DNA from: an uncultured bacterium
GTDB lineage: Bacteria; UBP6; UBA1177
NCBI GenBank assembly: GCA_905233945.1
Contig: CAJOFY010000022.1
Location: forward strand, 1,490-65,489
Reading direction: 5' to 3'
DNA length: 64,000 nucleotides
Below the pieces are notes generated by a model. It saw only the letters and a list, made by a program, of their open reading frames with translations, was not told the DNA's origin and did not search any database. Both the position numbers and the translations under genes were made by a program. Shown piece by piece: positions 16,890-47,089 of the stretch; within the stretch, counting starts at the first letter, position 1; each line of letters starts with the position of its first letter.

Positions 16890-16978
16890 TAATTTCAGCA
16901 ATTTGCACATGCAAATCGCTGAAATTAAACAAAAAACTTGATTTTTCAAAAAATATTCGTAGTATGCGTCCGCCTTTC

Positions 16979-17056
<78 letters not shown>

Positions 17057-17088
17057 GCAGTTCTTTGGCTGCCGGATGCTTTGAGTGT

Positions 17089-17165
<77 letters not shown>

Positions 17166-17197
17166 TTTTTGATGTTCTTTTTAATTTGAAGATACGT

Positions 17198-17273
17198 GGT
17201 GGGTGTAGTTCAATGGTAGAGCACCGGATTGTGGATCCGGGCGTTGTGGGTTCGAGCCCCACCTCCCACCCCA
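17198..17273 (+). tRNA. tRNA-His (anticodon GTG) with G-1
   Basis: Extra 5' G pairing with discriminator C; anticodon loop TTGTGGA; GGTTCGAGCCC T-arm. Confidence 0.75.
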
Positions 17274-17286
17274 TTACGCAGAATGT

Positions 17287-17362
17287 GGGCCCTTAGCTCA
17301 GCTGGTAGAGCAACTGACTCTTAATCAGTGGGTCGAAGGTTCGAATCCTTTAGGGCCTACCA
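17287..17362 (+). tRNA. tRNA-Lys (anticodon CTT)
   Basis: GGGCCCTTAGCTCAGCTGGTAGAGC…; anticodon loop CTCTTAA. Confidence 0.8.
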
Positions 17363-17431
17363 TCTTTTTTCTACTTTGAACATCCTCACACAGTTTTTAA
17401 GACTTTTAAAAAAGGATAAAATTCTATCCTT

Positions 17432-17514
17432 GCGAAAGTGGCGGAATTGGCAGACGCACCAGACTTAGGATCTGGCGGGAAACCGTGGGGGTTCGAGTCC
17501 CCCCCTTCGCACCA
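17432..17514 (+). tRNA. tRNA-Leu (anticodon TAG), type II with long variable arm
   Basis: GCGAAAGTGGCGGAATTGGCAGACGC…; anticodon loop CTTAGGA; long extra arm CGGGAAACCGTG. Confidence 0.75.
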
Positions 17515-20469: not shown

Positions 20470-20545
20470 GGGTCGGTAGCTCAGATGGAAGAGCATCTGA
20501 CTTTTAATCAGGGGGTCGCGGGTCCGAGTCCCGCCCGACCCACCA
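20470..20545 (+). tRNA. tRNA-Lys (anticodon TTT)
   Basis: GGGTCGGTAGCTCAGATGG…; anticodon loop CTTTTAA; CCA encoded. Confidence 0.8.
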
Positions 20546-20565
20546 TTCGCTCTCACTTTTTTGGT

Positions 20566-20640
20566 GACCTTTTCGTCTAGTGGTTAGGACATCGGCCTTT
20601 CACGCCGGTAACGGGGGTTCGAGTCCCCCAAAGGTCGCCA
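20566..20640 (+). tRNA. tRNA-Glu (anticodon TTC)
   Basis: GACCTTTTCGTCTAGTGGTTAGGAC…; anticodon loop CTTTCAC; architecture parallels E. coli tRNA-Glu. Confidence 0.75.
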
Positions 20641-41692: not shown

Positions 41693-41897
41693 AATATTCT
41701 CCTAAAACATGAATGTTTTCAGCAATTTACTCAATTTATTCAATTAAAAGAACTCTTGTCAAAAAACGGCAACACTTTAAGGGAAATTGCAGAAAATGCA
41801 AGAGTTTGCGGGCGAGCAGGCCACATTCAGCTCAACGAATACGAACACTCATTTTGCGGTCAAAAATTTTGACCGTAGAAAAGCGCGTTATTCAGCA

Positions 41898-41944
41898 GTT
41901 AAAACGGCAAATTTTGTAATTTTGTAAAAAGTTTACGGTTTAAC
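41898..41944. repeat. islet boundary repeat, copy a (GTTAAAACGGCAAATTTTGTAATTTTGTAAAAAGTTTACGGTTTAAC)
   Basis: Two further copies at 43116-43162 and 45716-45753 (consensus TTAAAGCGGTARATTTTGTGATTTTGTAAAAAGTCTACGGTTTAAC). Confidence 0.8.
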
Positions 41945-41970
41945 TTGAGAACAACGGATAATTTTTGGTT

Positions 41971-42118
41971 TACCACGGAACCGAGATAAGTCCGGAAAAA
42001 CCCATGAATGCAAGTGAGAGAAGACATGCTGTGACGAGCGCAGTCGCCTTGCCTCAAAACCATTCCCCGGAAATCCCGTTGCAGGCTTTTTTCAAGAGTT
42101 CAATGCCGGATTTTTACT
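41971..42118 (-). pseudogene. diverged duplicate of the rnfA 3' end (encodes …ALVTACLLSLAFMGFSGLISVPW* on the minus strand) plus shared downstream sequence
   Basis: Minus-strand translation matches the RnfA C-terminus (…[25 protein letters not shown]) with an in-frame stop just upstream; ~85% nt identity to the authentic 46502-46580. Confidence 0.75.
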
Positions 42119-42719
42119 GTTTTTTCCCGATCTCGCGGACTTTCCCAATGATTTCATTGATTTTGTCAAGCGTCATATCCGCGATACTGTTTTCTTCCGC
42201 GGTTTTCCTCATGTTTTCAACTGCGGAAACTACATTGTCATATTGAATGTATATTTTTTCCAGCAATTTTATATCACAGCATCTTTGTTTTATTCTGATT
42301 TCGTAATCTGCGAGTTCGCTGTCATCAGAAAACAGCAATTCCCTAAGTAAATTAGCAGTTTTTTGTATTTGAATCGTGTCGCTGCGGATAGCTTTGTATT
42401 GATTCTGCAAAAGACGACGGTATTTGTCATCGCCGATTTTCTCTATTTCAATAAGGATTAAAGCCGAATCTGTTACCGGAATCATATTGCTAAAATTGAT
42501 CGCTCCATACAAACCGGCAGATATTTTCCTGAAATCAATAGTATTTTTCATAGTTTTGTGCTTTGGCTTGGGTGAAGAGAACGGCGCATAATATTTAACA
42601 GAACCTATTTCAAGAACGATTCCGACATAAGGTCTTGTTTCGTGCTTGTTGTCGGCGACTTTAGCGTCATATTTCCTAAGAAAGTCTATGTAATCGTCTT
42701 TCACATGATAGAATCTCAT
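42114..42719 (-). CDS. ToxN/AbiQ-family endoribonuclease toxin (type III toxin-antitoxin)
   Basis: 201 aa; N-terminus MRFYHVKDDYIDFLRKYDAKV…YVGIVLEIGSVKYYAPFSSPKPKH closely parallels ToxN (MKFYTISSKYIEYLKEFDDKV…FIGIVLEIQGHKYLAPLTSPK). Confidence 0.8.
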   Translation of the reverse strand: MRFYHVKDDYIDFLRKYDAKVADNKHETRPYVGIVLEIGSVKYYAPFSSPKPKHKTMKNTIDFRKISAGLYGAINFSNMIPVTDSALILIEIEKIGDDKYRRLLQNQYKAIRSDTIQIQKTANLLRELLFSDDSELADYEIRIKQRCCDIKLLEKIYIQYDNVVSAVENMRKTAEENSIADMTLDKINEIIGKVREIGKKQ

Positions 42720-42730
42720 TTTTCCCCCTA

Positions 42731-42764
42731 AAAAAACAAAGGGCGGATAAACCGCCCTTTTTTA
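42731..42764 (-). terminator. intrinsic terminator between the toxI-like repeats and toxN (GGGCGG-UUUAU-CCGCCC plus U-run on the minus-strand transcript)
   Basis: 6-bp GC stem followed by UUUGUUUUUUU; same position as the attenuating terminator of characterised ToxIN loci. Confidence 0.65.
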
Positions 42765-42765
42765 A

Positions 42766-42900
42766 GTCCTCTGTTGTGGTCGAGGCTCACCGCTTTTTTA
42801 AGATTTCACTTAATGGTAGAAACTCACCGCTTTTTTCGGTTTCCAATTAAGGTCGGAACTTACCTGCGTCAAAAACTTTAGTCACTTTTTATTTAAAGTC
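42766..42900 (-). ncRNA. candidate ToxI-like antitoxin RNA: ~2.5 tandem 37-nt repeats (plus-strand units CTCACCGCTTTTTT-N23 at 42786-42822 and 42823-42859, partial unit 42766-42785)
   Basis: Direct tandem repeats immediately upstream (minus strand) of toxN and separated from it by a terminator; canonical type III TA arrangement. Confidence 0.65.
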
Positions 42901-42956
42901 AATAGATTTTTACAATAAATTAGAAATTTCTAAAGAATCTGTGAAGATTTTTAGTC

Positions 42957-43100
42957 TACCACGGAACCGTGATAAGTCCGGTGAAACCCATGAACGCAAG
43001 TGAAAGAAGGCCGGCGGTGACAAGCGCGATCGGCTAGCCTCAAAACCATTCCCCGGAAATCCCGATGCAGGCTTTTTTCAAGAGTTCAATGCCGGATTTT
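42957..43100 (-). pseudogene. second diverged duplicate of the rnfA 3' end (encodes [25 protein letters not shown])
   Basis: 26 codons identical or conservative to the RnfA C-terminus with many synonymous nt changes; upstream in-frame stop marks the crossover point. Confidence 0.75.
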
Positions 43101-43115
43101 CGACAGATCATGCCG

Positions 43116-43162
43116 CTTAAAGCGGTAAATTTTGTGATTTTGTAAAAAGTCTACGGTTTAAC
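43116..43162. repeat. islet boundary repeat, copy b
   Basis: See copy a. Confidence 0.8.
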
Positions 43163-43192
43163 CTAAAATTTTTGGATATTACAAAAACTAGG

Positions 43193-43621
43193 TTAAATGA
43201 AGACCTTCTCTATTTCTTCGAAGTTTTCATGTTTATATTTTTCAAACTCTTTCCTAAGACGGCTCTCTTTGGAAATATACAAATATTGGTTATTACTCTG
43301 TTTCCTCTTTCTGTAAACTGTTTGTTTCTGAGCTTTCAGCTGCCGTTCGACATCCCGCTTTGTTAAAAACAAATAAGCGGGTTCACTATCTTTTGTTTCA
43401 AGCACCTCTATCACAAAAAAATCGTTCTTGTCTTTAATCACTATAGAATTGTTTATGCTACGATTATCCATAGTTACAATATTTACTTGGATCCTTTTCA
43501 GTTTGTTTTCAGGCATAATCACAAGAATTTCGCGTTCTTTTCTGGTGGTACACGCAGAATAAAAAACTTCTCCACAACTGCTTAAGCCCTTAAGTATCAA
43601 TTTATAATTATTTTTTGACAT
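43193..43621 (-). CDS. hypothetical basic protein (142 aa) encoded downstream of the rSAM maturase
   Basis: GGAGAA RBS before ATG 43621; Lys/Arg-rich C-terminal half; no confident family assignment (weak, unconvincing GIY-YIG-like spacing). Confidence 0.4.
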   Translation of the reverse strand: MSKNNYKLILKGLSSCGEVFYSACTTRKEREILVIMPENKLKRIQVNIVTMDNRSINNSIVIKDKNDFFVIEVLETKDSEPAYLFLTKRDVERQLKAQKQTVYRKRKQSNNQYLYISKESRLRKEFEKYKHENFEEIEKVFI

Positions 43622-43651
43622 ATTTTTCTCCACTACAATTGATAAGAATTT

Positions 43652-44923
43652 TCAAACTGAGAGATTGGCTCTCTCTTCCAACTCACGAAGAGCCATTTCT
43701 TTTGTAAAATTACACAATTCAGCAAAATCTTTATCCGAGTAGGCAAGCTTATTACTGCAGCATTGGCTGTTGCAGTGATACTTCATAAAACAAGTTTCGC
43801 ATTCCTTAACCCTTTTTCTCTCATATAAATCACTAATACTTTTCATTTTATTTTCATCTACTAGCACAGCGTCGTTGCTTACGACACCATATTTCAACTG
43901 TTCAAATGCCAGAGCTCTGTTGTTGGAATTCCTGTGGCATGCGACAATGTCTCCTGACGGAGTAACACAAAATTCTCCACCACAAAAACGATTCCTGATA
44001 GATTGCAATGAATTTATTACGGAATTTCTCAAATAAATATTTTTGGTTTTTGCAACAGCCTTGGCTTTAAAAAAATAATTCATAAAATCATGATAATAAT
44101 TTTCCCATGTCAATCCTGGCATAGACACAAGTTCTAAATGAATTTTTCTGATTTTCGGATAATTTTCCGATACATACTCAACCATTTCCGGCATTTTTTC
44201 TACAGCTGTCTGCGTAATTGTAGTTCTAAAACCGAAATCAACTCCATTTTCAGCTAATAAGTCTATTGAATTTTTCACATCAACAAAACTTCCTTTTCCG
44301 GAAGGATAAGGGCGTTGTATGTTTTGAATTTCAGGGAGAATGTCGAAAGAACATCCAATATGAACCTGATTTTTCACAAGCCACTGTATTCGTTCAGCAT
44401 TCAGCAAAGTCGTGTTGGTCGTCAAACTTATACTTACTTTTTGATCTTTCTGCAGTTTTCTTATGTATTCAACAGCCCAAACAAACAACTCCCATTTTAC
44501 ACAAGGTTCTCCGCCGCCGATAAAAGAAAAATGCTTGCCTTTTGTTCTGCTGCTAAAAATAAAATCTATCGTGTTTTTCAGTTTATCTTTTGTCAGAGTC
44601 TCTGCAGAATGTTGTTCATGCGCATAACAATAAGTGCAAGCAAGATTACAAGCCTCCGTCAATATAAATACCGTATGTCTTTTCTTCATGCCGAATCCGT
44701 AATATTTATGGACTGTTGCATCTTGAGTTGACATAAGATCTGAAATTCTCTCATCCAAATCTGTATCGCAGCATCCACCATTTTTGAAAGATTTTTCTAT
44801 TTCGACAGCCTCGACATCTTTTGTGTAAAAAAGCCGCCTTTTCAACGGAGCATAAACTATATGCGTATTTTTTAAATGAGACTCCAACAAAAAAATTTCA
44901 TCCCCAAGACTCAGATATTTCAT
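43652..44923 (-). CDS. radical SAM / SPASM-domain peptide maturase with probable N-terminal RRE-like region
   Basis: CNLACTYCYA CxxxCxxC; GGGEP; C-terminal auxiliary-cluster cysteines (CGGEFCVTPSGDIVAC…CETCFMKYHCNSQCC) typical of SPASM/twitch RiPP maturases. Confidence 0.75.
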   Translation of the reverse strand: MKYLSLGDEIFLLESHLKNTHIVYAPLKRRLFYTKDVEAVEIEKSFKNGGCCDTDLDERISDLMSTQDATVHKYYGFGMKKRHTVFILTEACNLACTYCYAHEQHSAETLTKDKLKNTIDFIFSSRTKGKHFSFIGGGEPCVKWELFVWAVEYIRKLQKDQKVSISLTTNTTLLNAERIQWLVKNQVHIGCSFDILPEIQNIQRPYPSGKGSFVDVKNSIDLLAENGVDFGFRTTITQTAVEKMPEMVEYVSENYPKIRKIHLELVSMPGLTWENYYHDFMNYFFKAKAVAKTKNIYLRNSVINSLQSIRNRFCGGEFCVTPSGDIVACHRNSNNRALAFEQLKYGVVSNDAVLVDENKMKSISDLYERKRVKECETCFMKYHCNSQCCSNKLAYSDKDFAELCNFTKEMALRELEERANLSV

Positions 44924-44949
44924 CTGAAATTTTTCCTCACCCTAAATCA

Positions 44950-45129
44950 TTAATCAAAGCAATCATTATCATTGCAGTGATAATCCATACCGCAACCATT
45001 ATCATCACAGTCAAACGAACAAACATCGCATTTGTCATCACACATACAATCACACCAATCAACATTGCAAAAGTTGGAATTTTTGCTTGCACTCGCTTCT
45101 TCCAAACTGATCAAATCTGAAATAATCAT
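44950..45129 (-). CDS. candidate RiPP precursor peptide: 20-aa leader plus 39-aa core with 10 Cys and 13 Asp (CNVDWCDCMCDDKCDVCSFDCDDNGCGMDYHCNDNDCFD)
   Basis: GGAGAG RBS 6 nt before ATG 45129; 26 nt upstream of the rSAM-SPASM gene; recurring Cys-x(1-3)-Asp spacing as in freyrasin-type ranthipeptides. Confidence 0.6.
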   Translation of the reverse strand: MIISDLISLEEASASKNSNFCNVDWCDCMCDDKCDVCSFDCDDNGCGMDYHCNDNDCFD

Positions 45130-45352
45130 TTTTCTCTCCACGAAAAAATTAATAAAAAATACTATCTGAAACGGGACTCCCGAAACAGTCTTTTTTGAAA
45201 AATCATAATAACTTACCCCCCTCCCGACTACGGAAACGCAGGATTCCGGCAATATTTTAACGTTTTATTTACTATTAGTCAACACAATATTTACCAATAG
45301 TCAAAAAATATTTTCTGTATGTGCTATATTGAAAAAAGGAGGTGGTTTGAGT

Positions 45353-45664
45353 ATGGATGGCAAAACACTTGGCAAGCGGGTGAAAGCATTAAGGCGTAAA
45401 GCCGGAATAACGCAGCTTGATCTCGCGTGCCGGGTAAATATCAGCGAAAGCTACATCGCGTTGATAGAAGCCGACAAACGAAAACCTGGAATGGATATAA
45501 TCTCTACTTTGGCAAACGAATTTCATGTCTCTGTTGACTATCTTTTAAGCGGCAAAATATCAGAAGAAGACAACCTCATGCTCAAAGAATGGACATCTCT
45601 TATAAAGGAAAGACCTCTTAAAATCGTCCGCACTTTTTTTGAATGTGTGGACAGCAAAAAATAA
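45353..45664 (+). CDS. XRE-family helix-turn-helix transcriptional regulator
   Basis: HTH_3 signature (ITQLDLACRVNISESYIALIE); divergent from the precursor peptide gene; AGGAGG RBS. Confidence 0.75.
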   Translation: MDGKTLGKRVKALRRKAGITQLDLACRVNISESYIALIEADKRKPGMDIISTLANEFHVSVDYLLSGKISEEDNLMLKEWTSLIKERPLKIVRTFFECVDSKK

Positions 45665-45715
45665 TTTTCATTTTTGCGATCGGATTTTCGACCGCAGAAA
45701 CTCGCGTTTTTTGCC

Positions 45716-45753
45716 GTTTAAAGCGGTAGATTTTGTGATTTTGTAAAAAGTCT
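45716..45753. repeat. islet boundary repeat, copy d (truncated)
   Basis: GTTTAAAGCGGTAGATTTTGTGATTTTGTAAAAAGTCT; abuts the 3' end of the PIN gene. Confidence 0.75.
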
Positions 45754-45760
45754 GGAGATA

Positions 45761-46174
45761 TCAAAGTTTTTTCAGTGCTTCATCAACGCTGATTGCCGGA
45801 ATTTTAGAGTTTTTGAAATCTTTGAGATTTTCGGTAACGATGTAATCAAGATCGGCGTTCTCGGCACATTTCATCTGTAATCCGTCTTCGAGATCGAAAA
45901 AATCAGGATCGTTAAGAACTTCAAAAAAATCTTCCTGATATTCAGCAATTACTTGAAAGTTTGAAACTATCAAAAGTAAAAACTCTCTTCTGTCTGCAAC
46001 CGAAAAAAACTTTCTCGTGATATAAAAAATATCTGTCAGCGAGTGTGCGGAAACAAAACCGTTAAGTTTTTTGGCAAGACACTTTTTTACAAGCAGCGAA
46101 GCTTTCTCGTGAAACGGATTATTCGGCGTGAGATAATAAAGAATAATATTCGTATCAACAAAGATATTCTTCAT
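45761..46174 (-). CDS. PIN-domain (VapC-like) toxin
   Basis: 137 aa; N-terminal IFVDTNI with conserved acidic PIN residues; 4-bp overlap with upstream antitoxin gene. Confidence 0.7.
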   Translation of the reverse strand: MKNIFVDTNIILYYLTPNNPFHEKASLLVKKCLAKKLNGFVSAHSLTDIFYITRKFFSVADRREFLLLIVSNFQVIAEYQEDFFEVLNDPDFFDLEDGLQMKCAENADLDYIVTENLKDFKNSKIPAISVDEALKKL

Positions 46175-46413
46175 ACCCCATACCTCTCGTCAAGGTATTC
46201 AAGATATTCCTGCCGTGCATCGATCTGTTTGTCACTTTTGATGCAACCATTGAATTTTTCGAACAATCTCATTGTTTCTTCCTTAGACATTCCGCCTTTT
46301 TCTTCATGCTTTTTTTCATTCATGTTTCCGAGCGAAACGACTAAATTGTAGATTATCGTCTGCTGCTCAGTTGTAAGTGCGCTCAACGCTTTTTCGAAAA
46401 CTTCGAAGCTCAT
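46171..46413 (-). CDS. small antitoxin-like protein of the PIN TA pair
   Basis: 80 aa, precedes and overlaps the PIN gene; GGAGG RBS before ATG 46413. Confidence 0.55.
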   Translation of the reverse strand: MSFEVFEKALSALTTEQQTIIYNLVVSLGNMNEKKHEEKGGMSKEETMRLFEKFNGCIKSDKQIDARQEYLEYLDERYGV

Positions 46414-46501
46414 TTTAACCTCCATTCCGCAAAAACTCTTCTATTATACTCAATTTTTTTAGAAATGCGAGAGGAAATTATCAGGAATCAATGATGTGAA
46501 T

Positions 46502-47089
46502 CTACCACGGCACGGCGATGAGTCCTGTGAAACCCATGAACGCAAGTGCGAGAAGACCTGCGGTGACAAGTGCGATCGGTGCGCCTTTCATAGCTTCGGG
46601 GATTTCGTAAAGCTCAAGGCGTTCCCTGATTCCTGCAAAAATTACGAGTGCCAAGAAGAAGCCGAGAGCGGTCGCGATCGTGTAAACTACGCTCTGGAGA
46701 AGTTCGTAGTTTTTCTGCGTTACGAGTATCGCAACACCGAGAACGGCGCAGTTCGTCGTGATGAGCGGAAGGAATACGCCGAGAGCCTGATAAAGCGGCC
46801 GTGACACTTTTTTCAGAATGATTTCAACCATTTGTACAAGTGCAGCGATGACAAGGATGTATGCGACCGTCTGCATAAATTCGATGTGAAGCTTTGTCAG
46901 AACAGCCTTGTAGAGAATGTGCGTAACTGTCGTAGCCAAGGTCATGACGAAAAGGACAGCCGCGCCCATTCCGACCGAAGTCGAAACTTTGTTCGAAACA
47001 CCGAGGAAGGGGCAGATTCCCAAAAACTGCGCGAAAACGATGTTGTTTACGAGGATCGCGCTGATGAAAACAAGAATATATCCGGTCAT
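46502..47089 (-). CDS. rnfA: Rnf electron-transport complex subunit A
   Basis: 195-aa polytopic membrane protein; conserved RnfA/NqrE-family sequence. Confidence 0.85.

Follow-up and report, generated by a model that had tools for sequence, protein, structure and literature searches.

A 64,000-nt stretch of contig CAJOFY010000022.1 from an uncultured bacterium (the whole stretch is called the window here) carries on its minus strand a locus that is very probably a type III toxin–antitoxin (TA) cassette of the ToxIN family, in which the gene for a ToxN endoribonuclease follows an array of ToxI-like RNA repeats; processing of that RNA and neutralization of the toxin are assigned by homology. 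The identification is carried by the identity of the toxin, the repeat array, the covariation of its pseudoknots, the terminator, and the conservation of the layout. An earlier note on this DNA had proposed just such an arrangement, and the succession of ToxI-like pseudoknot array, terminator, and toxin gene does recur in the loci of 43 relatives. The cassette is genuine but typical; near relatives already appear in a catalogue of 2012. Its features are as follows:

42875–42902, minus strand: sigma-70-like promoter found by consensus scan, with –35 TTGACT, a 16-nt spacer, and –10 TAAAGT
42837–42870, minus strand: ToxI-like unit 0 (leader), 34 nt, GACGCAGGTAAGTTCCGACCTTAATTGGAAACCG, with the shared core and no 5′ A-tract
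42800–42836, minus strand: ToxI-like unit 1, 37 nt, AAAAAAGCGGTGAGTTTCTACCATTAAGTGAAATCTT, an A6 tract and GC followed by the pseudoknot core
42764–42799, minus strand: ToxI-like unit 2, 36 nt, AAAAAAGCGGTGAGCCTCGACCACAACAGAGGACTT, an A6 tract and GC followed by the pseudoknot core
42730–42763, minus strand: A6 tract (42763–42758) and intrinsic terminator, with a GGGCGG-TTTAT-CCGCCC stem (42757–42741) and a T-run (42740–42730)
42724–42728, minus strand: Shine–Dalgarno sequence GGGGG, read from the sequence, 4 nt before the toxN ATG
42114–42719, minus strand: toxN, a 201-aa open reading frame (ORF) for a ToxN/AbiQ-family endoribonuclease, residues 1–160 being the conserved domain
42114–42236, minus strand: C-terminal tail of ToxN (codons ~162–201), ~40 aa, modeled as two low-confidence helices

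The ToxN Protein

The toxN product matches the Pfam family PF13958 (ToxN_toxin) with an E-value of 2.1e-50 over the full model (positions 1–159 of 159), which bears out the earlier identification of the gene as a ToxN homolog, and PADLOC assigns it to AbiQ (6.6e-41). Among proteins of known structure in the PDB, phmmer matched it to ToxN_Pa (2xd0, 2.9e-16), ToxN_Ec (7d8o, 8.5e-16), ToxN_Bt (4ato, 2e-12), and AbiQ (4glk, 1e-8). An AlphaFold2 (AF2) model of the protein, for which an alignment of 20 sequences (alignment A1) served as input, has a mean predicted local distance difference test (pLDDT) value of 86.3. In Foldseek comparisons, this model gave target-normalized template modeling (TM) scores of 0.81 with ToxN_Pa, 0.80 with ToxN_Ec, 0.79 with ToxN_Bt, and 0.75 with AbiQ; its resemblance to CptN was weak (TM 0.53, E 9e-3).

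The catalytic residues of ToxN are K33, T52, S53, and K55, and the RNA is held by Y110 and Q117 (PMC8860590). In the PDB alignment, these positions correspond to R29, S48, S49, K51, Y100, and Q107 of the window toxin. R29, S49, K51, Y100, and Q107 are invariant across alignment A1, and S48 is replaced by threonine, the residue of ToxN_Pa, in three of the 20 sequences. A lysine-to-arginine change at position 33 is known from E. coli clusters 4 and 5 (PMC8860590). On the combined evidence of alignment and model, the ORF at 42114–42719 is a full-length ToxN, with the ToxN fold and the catalytic residues kept. Within alignment A1, the C-terminal tail of ~40 aa is present only in relatives of more than 90% identity; the 91%-identical toxin of a relative at an unrelated site (locus L010) stops at residue 163 and so is without it.

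The Repeat Array

In the search for repeats, two 37-nt copies that are 78% identical were found at 42777–42813 and 42814–42850. The earlier note had described ~2.5 tandem 37-nt repeats; the repeats are real and lie upstream of toxN on the same strand, and this count is a fair one for the DNA, but structurally the array consists of three pseudoknot units, of 37 and 36 nt and a leader. An A6 tract lies at each of the three unit boundaries, and the A6 listed fourth (42763–42758) leads into the terminator. In every unit the first helix (S1) is GGU/ACC. The second helix (S2) is UUCC(G)/(U)GGAA in unit 0; UUUC/GAAA in unit 1, preceded by a GA linker and with an additional U·U closing pair; and CCUC/GAGG in unit 2, where it is compensatory relative to unit 1. 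The three S2 helices of the window, UUCC/GGAA, UUUC/GAAA, and CCUC/GAGG, thus differ from one another by compensation. The assignment of unit 0 was accompanied by a weak nhmmer match (5.7 bits, –153 to –118 in locus L009, the array of which is identical to that of the window).

The period-37 score of the 300-nt upstream region was 14, as compared with 7.1 ± 1.1 in dinucleotide shuffles, one in 1000 of which scored as high. Furthermore, the motif AAAAGCGGTGAGNNNCNACC is present at only these two sites within the 64 kb, where 0.03 occurrences were expected. Because the repeat is weak on its own, the decisive support for the array comes from comparative data.

Comparative and Covariation Evidence

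The exact window toxin was found on 20 metagenome contigs, on which the promoter, array, and terminator are nearly identical. A genome scan with the toxin gave 80 loci, including one 100% match in a rumen metagenome-assembled genome ('uncultured Spirochaetales bacterium RUG11946') and toxins of 60–68% identity in Treponema, Lachnospiraceae, Blautia, Ruminococcus torques ATCC 27756, and Ruminococcus sp. 5_1_39BFAA. The best upstream period was 36–38 nt, at –165 to –40 from the ATG, in ~45 of the 57 loci examined. When the 260 nt upstream of toxN in loci L009–L054 were surveyed with a hidden Markov model (HMM), exactly three units were found in 40 of 43 arrays, at spacings of 36, 37, or 38 nt. 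The A tract at unit boundaries is nearly universal among the units of these relatives, and the first unit is without an A tract and follows a promoter-like site in 34 of the 40 three-unit arrays.

A total of 96 distinct units (alignment A2) were aligned and tested against an H-type pseudoknot composed of S1, GGU(G)/(Y)ACC, and an S2 of four pairs, the 5′ arm of which lies inside the S1 loop. Pseudoknot cells were paired in 84.6% of cases, vs. 48–55% when the partners were slid by one to three columns. Cells with a double change numbered 81, against 37 ± 5 in shuffles, and none of 500 shuffles reached that value. The pair types observed in the 96 units were CG 53 and UA 32 at one position; UA 51, UG 22, and CG 18 at another; and UA 78 and CG 13 at a third. 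In addition, alignment columns 20 and 32 covary, with U/U in 27 units and C/A in 20. The crystal structure of ToxI_Ec contains a non-canonical U12–U22 pair next to G21 (PMC8860590), and columns 20 and 32 fall at the U12–U22 position. A fourth S1 pair, G13–Y20, was considered and dropped: by comparison with ToxI_Ec, the G belongs to the L1 linker and Y20 pairs non-canonically with column 32.

On this covariation, which concerns both stems, each unit is able to form a pseudoknot of the ToxI type, a potential that the earlier note had proposed to check. Minimum-free-energy folds of single units in ViennaRNA show one stem at a time; since these folds do not model pseudoknots, it is on covariation that the support for the pseudoknot rests. 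The differences between units are compensatory and preserve the stems, which points to selection on structure.

Expression Signals

Transcription of toxI–toxN likely starts near 42870–42867, judging from the position of the promoter, and unit 0 begins at approximately this inferred start. The promoter hexamers are kept in every strain with an identical or 91%-identical toxin, and in relatives a promoter-like site is found at equal distance before the first unit.

The terminator stem and T-run, which had been described earlier as a GC-rich stem plus U-tract, were found as such: the stem can be extended to 9 bp, and the 35-nt stretch 42730–42764 has a predicted folding energy of –16.1 kcal/mol, ~20 nt before the toxN ATG. 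In relatives, terminators were judged by an explicit search for a stem plus T-run, as the minimum-free-energy fold mispaired the A tract with the T-run. By this strict test, at least 32 of 43 relatives have a hairpin and T-run ~20 nt ahead of the ATG; most of those remaining have a bulged or mismatched hairpin overlooked by the test, mostly followed by a T-run. The A6 tract in front of the stem (42763–42758) is the predicted last cleavage site of ToxN, by analogy with characterized systems. The gap from the terminator to the ribosome-binding site is too small to hold a promoter, and for this reason we infer that toxN is expressed by read-through of the terminator, after the model of ToxIN of Pectobacterium. 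In known ToxIN systems, such an arrangement yields an excess of RNA.

Comparison with Known Type III Systems

A survey of type III systems listed 67 toxIN loci, among them those of Treponema succinifaciens DSM 2489, T. vincentii, R. torques ATCC 27756, and Ruminococcus sp. 5_1_39BFAA (Blower et al., 2012; PMC3401426). Candidates for ToxI-like RNAs have been noted in Clostridiales as well, again upstream of ToxN (Fremin and Bhatt, 2021; PMC8040213). For the toxIN family, the mean repeat is 38.1 nt long (31–62) and present in 2.8 copies (1.9–5.6), and the mean toxin is 168 aa (70–288) (PMC3401426, Table 2). The array of the window, which spans 42870–42764 with unit spacings of 37 and 36 nt, falls within these ranges, and the locus is average for toxIN in repeat length, copy number, and toxin size. 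The earlier note had pointed out that repeat length and number differ from the 5.5 × 36 nt of the best-known ToxI; they do differ, but against the family means this is unremarkable.

The closest of the catalogued systems are those of T. succinifaciens DSM 2489, R. torques ATCC 27756, and Ruminococcus sp. 5_1_39BFAA, all three listed in Table 1 of PMC3401426, the toxins of which belong to the same ToxN subfamily (60–68% identity over the 160-aa domain). These loci share with the window a three-unit array of 36–38-nt period, the consensus AAAAAAGCGGTGAGTCTCCACCATWAAGAGAGAACCT, and the position of the terminator. The window locus differs from them in the extra ~40-aa tail of its toxin, in units that are more diverged from one another, in its host, an uncultured rumen spirochaete, and in its insertion site.

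As the earlier note had recommended, the repeats were compared with those of known systems, and the window units align with ToxI both of pECA1039 and of B. thuringiensis. The Pectobacterium atrosepticum pECA1039 ToxIN (2xd0/2xdb) provides the best structural match to the window ToxN, and the E. coli ToxIN (7d8o) is grouped with it. Read from sequence, the ToxI of pECA1039 is AGGTGATTTGCTACCTTTAAGTGCAGCTAGAAATTC × 5.5, and the unit cores align along GGTGA-TTT-CTACC-TTAAGTG (for unit 1, via GGTGA..CTACC..TTAAGTG). Unit 1 maps position by position on ToxI_Ec, with a 5-nt overhang, an S1 of G2-G3-U4 with A13-C14-C15, a G5-A6 linker, and an S2 that closes, as in ToxI_Ec, with a non-canonical U·U pair beside a G. 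In contrast to the three diverged units and A6 tracts of the window, the plasmid-borne pECA1039 system has 5.5 identical 36-nt repeats and is cleaved at AA|AU.

In B. thuringiensis (pAW63 type; 4ato; RF02519), the plasmid ToxI, read from sequence, is AAAAAATTGGTGTAACTCTACCGTAGTGAGTACC, and the resemblance extends to A6 at unit boundaries, a GGUG...UACC stem with a nested second stem, approximately three non-identical units with compensatory changes in S2, a terminator before toxN, and the fold of the toxin. ToxN_Bt is reported to cleave at AAA|AA, and other A-rich ToxN sites are AA|AU and GAA|AU (PMC8860590). The B. thuringiensis units are 34 nt long, vs. 36–37 nt in the window, and the similarity between the proteins is limited to the E-value of 2e-12 given above. 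AbiQ/antiQ of Lactococcus lactis (4glk) has the family and layout of the window locus, and it is AbiQ that PADLOC names as the window toxin, but AbiQ itself is more distant from the window ToxN in both sequence and fold (E 1e-8, TM 0.75). The closest plasmid-borne relatives of the toxin are lactococcal genes of the ToxN/AbiQ family, with 47% identity.

CptIN and TenpIN follow the same logic, with an RNA-repeat antitoxin upstream of an endoribonuclease toxin, and have repeats of 40–48 and 39–57 nt, respectively (PMC3401426). Membership in these families was rejected: the window toxin has no sequence match to theirs in Pfam or the PDB, the TM with CptN is 0.53, and the window units, at 36–37 nt, are shorter.

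Proposed Mechanism

Processing, complex formation, toxicity, cleavage site, and trigger are here drawn by analogy with characterized ToxIN systems. The constitutive-looking promoter would give rise to a short non-coding RNA of three ToxI-type pseudoknot units split by A6 tracts. Most transcripts would end at the terminator (42757–42730), and read-through transcripts would reach toxN; with only partial read-through, the antitoxin RNA should be in excess over the toxin. ToxN, as a metal-independent endoribonuclease, would cut the precursor inside the A tracts. The predicted cut, AAA|AAA, which would fall at 42834|42833, 42797|42796, and 42761|42760, would leave 5 nt overhanging on the 5′ side of the GGU stem, as is the case for the ToxI of Pectobacterium and Bacillus; it was chosen because this overhang is assumed to be conserved, and it agrees with the AAA|AA of ToxN_Bt. 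For unit 0, which is without an A-tract and whose first nucleotides coincide roughly with the inferred transcription start, no 5′ processing would be required.

The released pseudoknots, of 35–37 nt, would hold ToxN in a closed, inactive protein–RNA ring, probably 3:3, which would match the three units per transcript. If transcription of the locus dropped or the RNA were degraded, as upon phage infection or loss of the islet that carries the cassette, the labile RNA would decay, and the freed ToxN would then cleave A-rich cellular and phage RNAs. Growth would stop, with abortive infection and/or addiction as the outcome.

The Variable Islet Downstream of rnfA

The cassette lies within a variable islet, the contents of which are, in addition to toxIN:

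41723–46501, minus strand: the islet itself, ~4.8 kb, bounded on one side by the rnfA stop (46502) and on the other by the leader of a gene for an 818-aa radical-SAM protein
~46171–46425 and 45761–46174, minus strand: 84-aa ORF and the PIN_3-domain toxin downstream of it, likely a type II TA pair
45329–45664, plus strand: divergent HTH_3/HTH_19 (helix-turn-helix) regulator, a further islet cassette
44950–45129, minus strand: Cys/Asp-rich peptide ORF (...CNVDWCDCMCDDKCDVCSFDCDDNGCGMDYHCNDNDCFD), directly upstream of the radical-SAM/SPASM gene
43652–44923, minus strand: radical-SAM/SPASM enzyme, with the PapB ranthipeptide maturase as best NCBIfam match (6e-40, below the curated cutoff)
43193–43633, minus strand: 146-aa ORF between the radical-SAM gene and toxIN, for which Pfam, NCBIfam, and PADLOC gave no match

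The G+C content is 0.36–0.38 across most of the islet (42–46 kb), vs. 0.45–0.52 in the bins on either side. In a metagenome scan with RnfA, two sister strains had an empty site: in L095 (2700–2900), 47 nt separate the rnfA stop from the TTG with which the 818-aa radical-SAM gene starts, and in L094 (6980–7300), 175 nt with a tiny Cys-rich hydrophobic ORF lie between the two genes. The exact look-up of the RnfA protein returned only strains with the arrangement of the window. The contents of the islet differ in L001, L007, L008, L097, and L099. The toxIN cassette directly follows rnfA in L008, follows rnfA and a 46-nt palindrome (D2, described below) in L007 and L097, and follows rnfA and a 175-aa ORF in L001–L003, L006, and L009; the window arrangement is that of L004 and L005.

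Given the empty sites and the strain-specific contents in sister strains, the rnfA stop is a hot spot for cassettes, and by this comparison ~4.8 kb of the window is inserted material, in which toxIN is one cassette. The mobile islet postulated in the earlier note is therefore backed by the empty-site strains, the dip in G+C, and the direct repeats on either side of toxIN. No gene for mobility turned up: the ±6-kb gene lists contain no integrase domain, and no recombinase was seen nearby. The Cys/Asp-rich peptide and the radical-SAM/SPASM enzyme probably form a pair for a ribosomally synthesized and post-translationally modified peptide (RiPP). On sister contigs, gene callers chose an overlapping 42-aa hydrophobic ORF in another frame (44937–45065) over this peptide. 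Elsewhere in the window, two tRNA clusters, at 16978–17514 (Pro-Arg-His-Lys-Leu) and 20470–20640 (Lys-Glu), are ordinary and unrelated to toxIN.

This setting bears on the role of the cassette. A real ToxIN system could serve mainly in addiction, stabilizing the variable islet downstream of rnfA, rather than in phage defense. We consider this a possible but rather unlikely main role. It would suit a cassette that resides in an islet absent from other strains or differently filled in them, and that shares the islet with a PIN-type TA pair; moreover, most toxIN loci are chromosomal, and some of the type III loci tested gave no protection against phage (PMC3401426). However, the toxIN-family systems with a phenotype recorded in the sources consulted (ToxIN_Pa, ToxIN_Ec, and AbiQ) do protect against phage, and it is under AbiQ that PADLOC places the toxin. 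Furthermore, toxIN is constant and the other cassettes vary among strains with this toxin, so that no particular cargo is obviously guarded. Addiction and abortive infection are, in any case, not mutually exclusive.

Points of Doubt and Remaining Alternatives

Several points weigh against the identification of the locus as a ToxIN-family cassette. At the DNA level the array is weak: short and, at 78% identity, diverged, it was not called by Tandem Repeats Finder at a minimum score of 30. The Rfam ToxI model RF02519, which is based on Bacillus, did not match the window array even at E ≤ 10, and the other Rfam output for the region, at the gathering score as well as at E ≤ 10, was noise. The search of NCBIfam with the toxN product likewise gave no match. 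In the window toxin, K53 and N78 replace W57 and F88, two of the residues with which ToxN_Pa holds the RNA, and the RNA contacts and cleavage specificity of the window toxin may differ as a result. The C-terminal tail, modeled at low confidence, has no known role. Finally, the type III loci assayed by Blower et al. (2012; PMC3401426) are other than the window locus and its close relatives, and the ring stoichiometry and cleavage position proposed above are pure inference.

The missing Rfam match is uninformative, because RF02519 also misses the founding ToxI of pECA1039. When this 34-nt model was tested on L089, L090, L026, and the window, it missed the ToxI of pECA1039 and the R. torques array and matched the Bacillus array only. 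The Treponema/Lachnospiraceae subfamily as a whole escapes it.

Some of these points would also be expected of a decaying, non-functional relic, in which diverged repeats no longer neutralize the toxin or the toxin is inactive: the limited identity between the units, the unusual and poorly modeled 40-aa tail, and the loss of the W57 and F88 equivalents. We regard such a relic as very improbable. Against it speak an unbroken toxN ORF with conserved catalytic residues, the occurrence of the identical toxin on 20 contigs that retain the promoter, array, and terminator, and the compensatory nature of the unit-to-unit differences, which leave both stems intact. In addition, the ToxI array of the B. 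thuringiensis plasmid is equally heterogeneous, and its toxIN family has been shown to be functional. The least credible alternative, to which we give almost no weight, is that the repeats, which terminate directly before toxN, are only a cis-acting leader or attenuator of that gene, the true antitoxin, if any, being elsewhere; the units are homologous in sequence and structure to ToxI RNAs whose antitoxin role was set by crystal structures and genetics, a simple attenuator would need neither a conserved pseudoknot nor A-tract punctuation, and the 842-bp cassette contains no small ORF or second antitoxin candidate. A ToxIN cassette remains our reading of the locus.

Flanking Direct Repeats

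The cassette is bracketed by long direct repeats, next to which lies a palindrome:

42947–43100, no strand assigned: D1′, a direct repeat of 154 nt, immediately upstream of the toxIN cassette
41961–42114, no strand assigned: D1, the second 154-nt copy, 89% identical, which begins at the toxN stop codon
41899–41944, no strand assigned: D2, a 46-nt AT-rich imperfect palindrome, GTTAAAACGG...ACGGTTTAAC

D1 and D1′ are spaced 986 bp from start to start. On the minus strand, D1′ consists of a segment of ~70 nt, called Z, and then a pseudo-copy of the final ~85 nt of rnfA, which ends with TGGTAG at 42961–42956. In the alignment with the end of rnfA (46503–46590), the distal ~85 nt of both 154-nt repeats are such pseudo-copies of the rnfA 3′ end, TGGTAG included. 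Their identity is 80–89% with the resident rnfA end and reaches 93.7% with the corresponding ends in other strains; for the pseudo-end of D1′, it amounts to 93.7% with L096 and 87% with the resident copy. Since the pseudo-ends are nearer to the rnfA ends of other strains than to the resident one, their sequences suggest that the cassette was imported together with flanking DNA.

Further copies of D2 are present at 43117–43162 and ~45684–45751, at cassette junctions of the islet, and D2 also occurs in L007, L097, and L098. Like the 154-nt repeats, the D2 copies at 41899–41944 and 43117–43162 enclose the toxIN cassette. The possibility that D2 and D1 are integron attC sites was considered and rejected. 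As single-stranded DNA, the D2 + D1 regions fold no better than shuffles (z = 0.40 and –0.06), the outer ends of D2, GTT...AAC, are reversed with respect to attC, most of D1 is copied from the 3′ end of rnfA, and the gene lists for ±6 kb contain no integrase domain.

A comparable situation was found at L010, where a 91%-identical cassette lies at an unrelated site between 80-nt repeats (1158–1236 and 2009–2088). These repeats copy the end of the upstream, DUF1566-like gene, beginning ~20 nt ahead of its stop codon. More generally, flanking direct repeats of at least 50 nt were present at 9 of 43 toxIN loci, vs. 2 of 125 control windows; other repeat-flanked toxIN loci, with repeats of 55–150 nt, are L018, L026, L033, L041, L042, and L068. 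Among the toxIN lineages compared, the flanking repeats have no common motif and their sequences are unrelated.

One speculative explanation is that toxIN cassettes of this subfamily are mobile units of ~0.85–1 kb, devoid of a recombinase, that insert immediately behind a resident gene's stop codon and come to be bracketed by 55–154-nt repeats of the 3′ end of that gene. We think this improbable as it stands. If it were true, an undescribed mechanism of insertion would be at work, for example a Campbell-type capture of ~1-kb circles, or the action in trans of a recombinase encoded by the host or by a phage.

Significance

With the window, a further chromosomal ToxIN locus, that of an uncultured rumen spirochaete, joins a family whose structures and genetics are already well described, and the picture of type III systems does not change. 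The Rfam ToxI model is too narrow, and the 96 units of alignment A2 could seed a broader covariance model. The long repeats of local gene ends that bracket the cassettes are the only thread with some potential for novelty. The insertion hot spot, with its empty-site comparators and long repeats, could become a small natural test case for the accumulation of defense and TA cassettes. Within the Treponema/Lachnospiraceae subfamily, the near-constant number of three units would be in keeping with a single 3:3 ring for each transcript.

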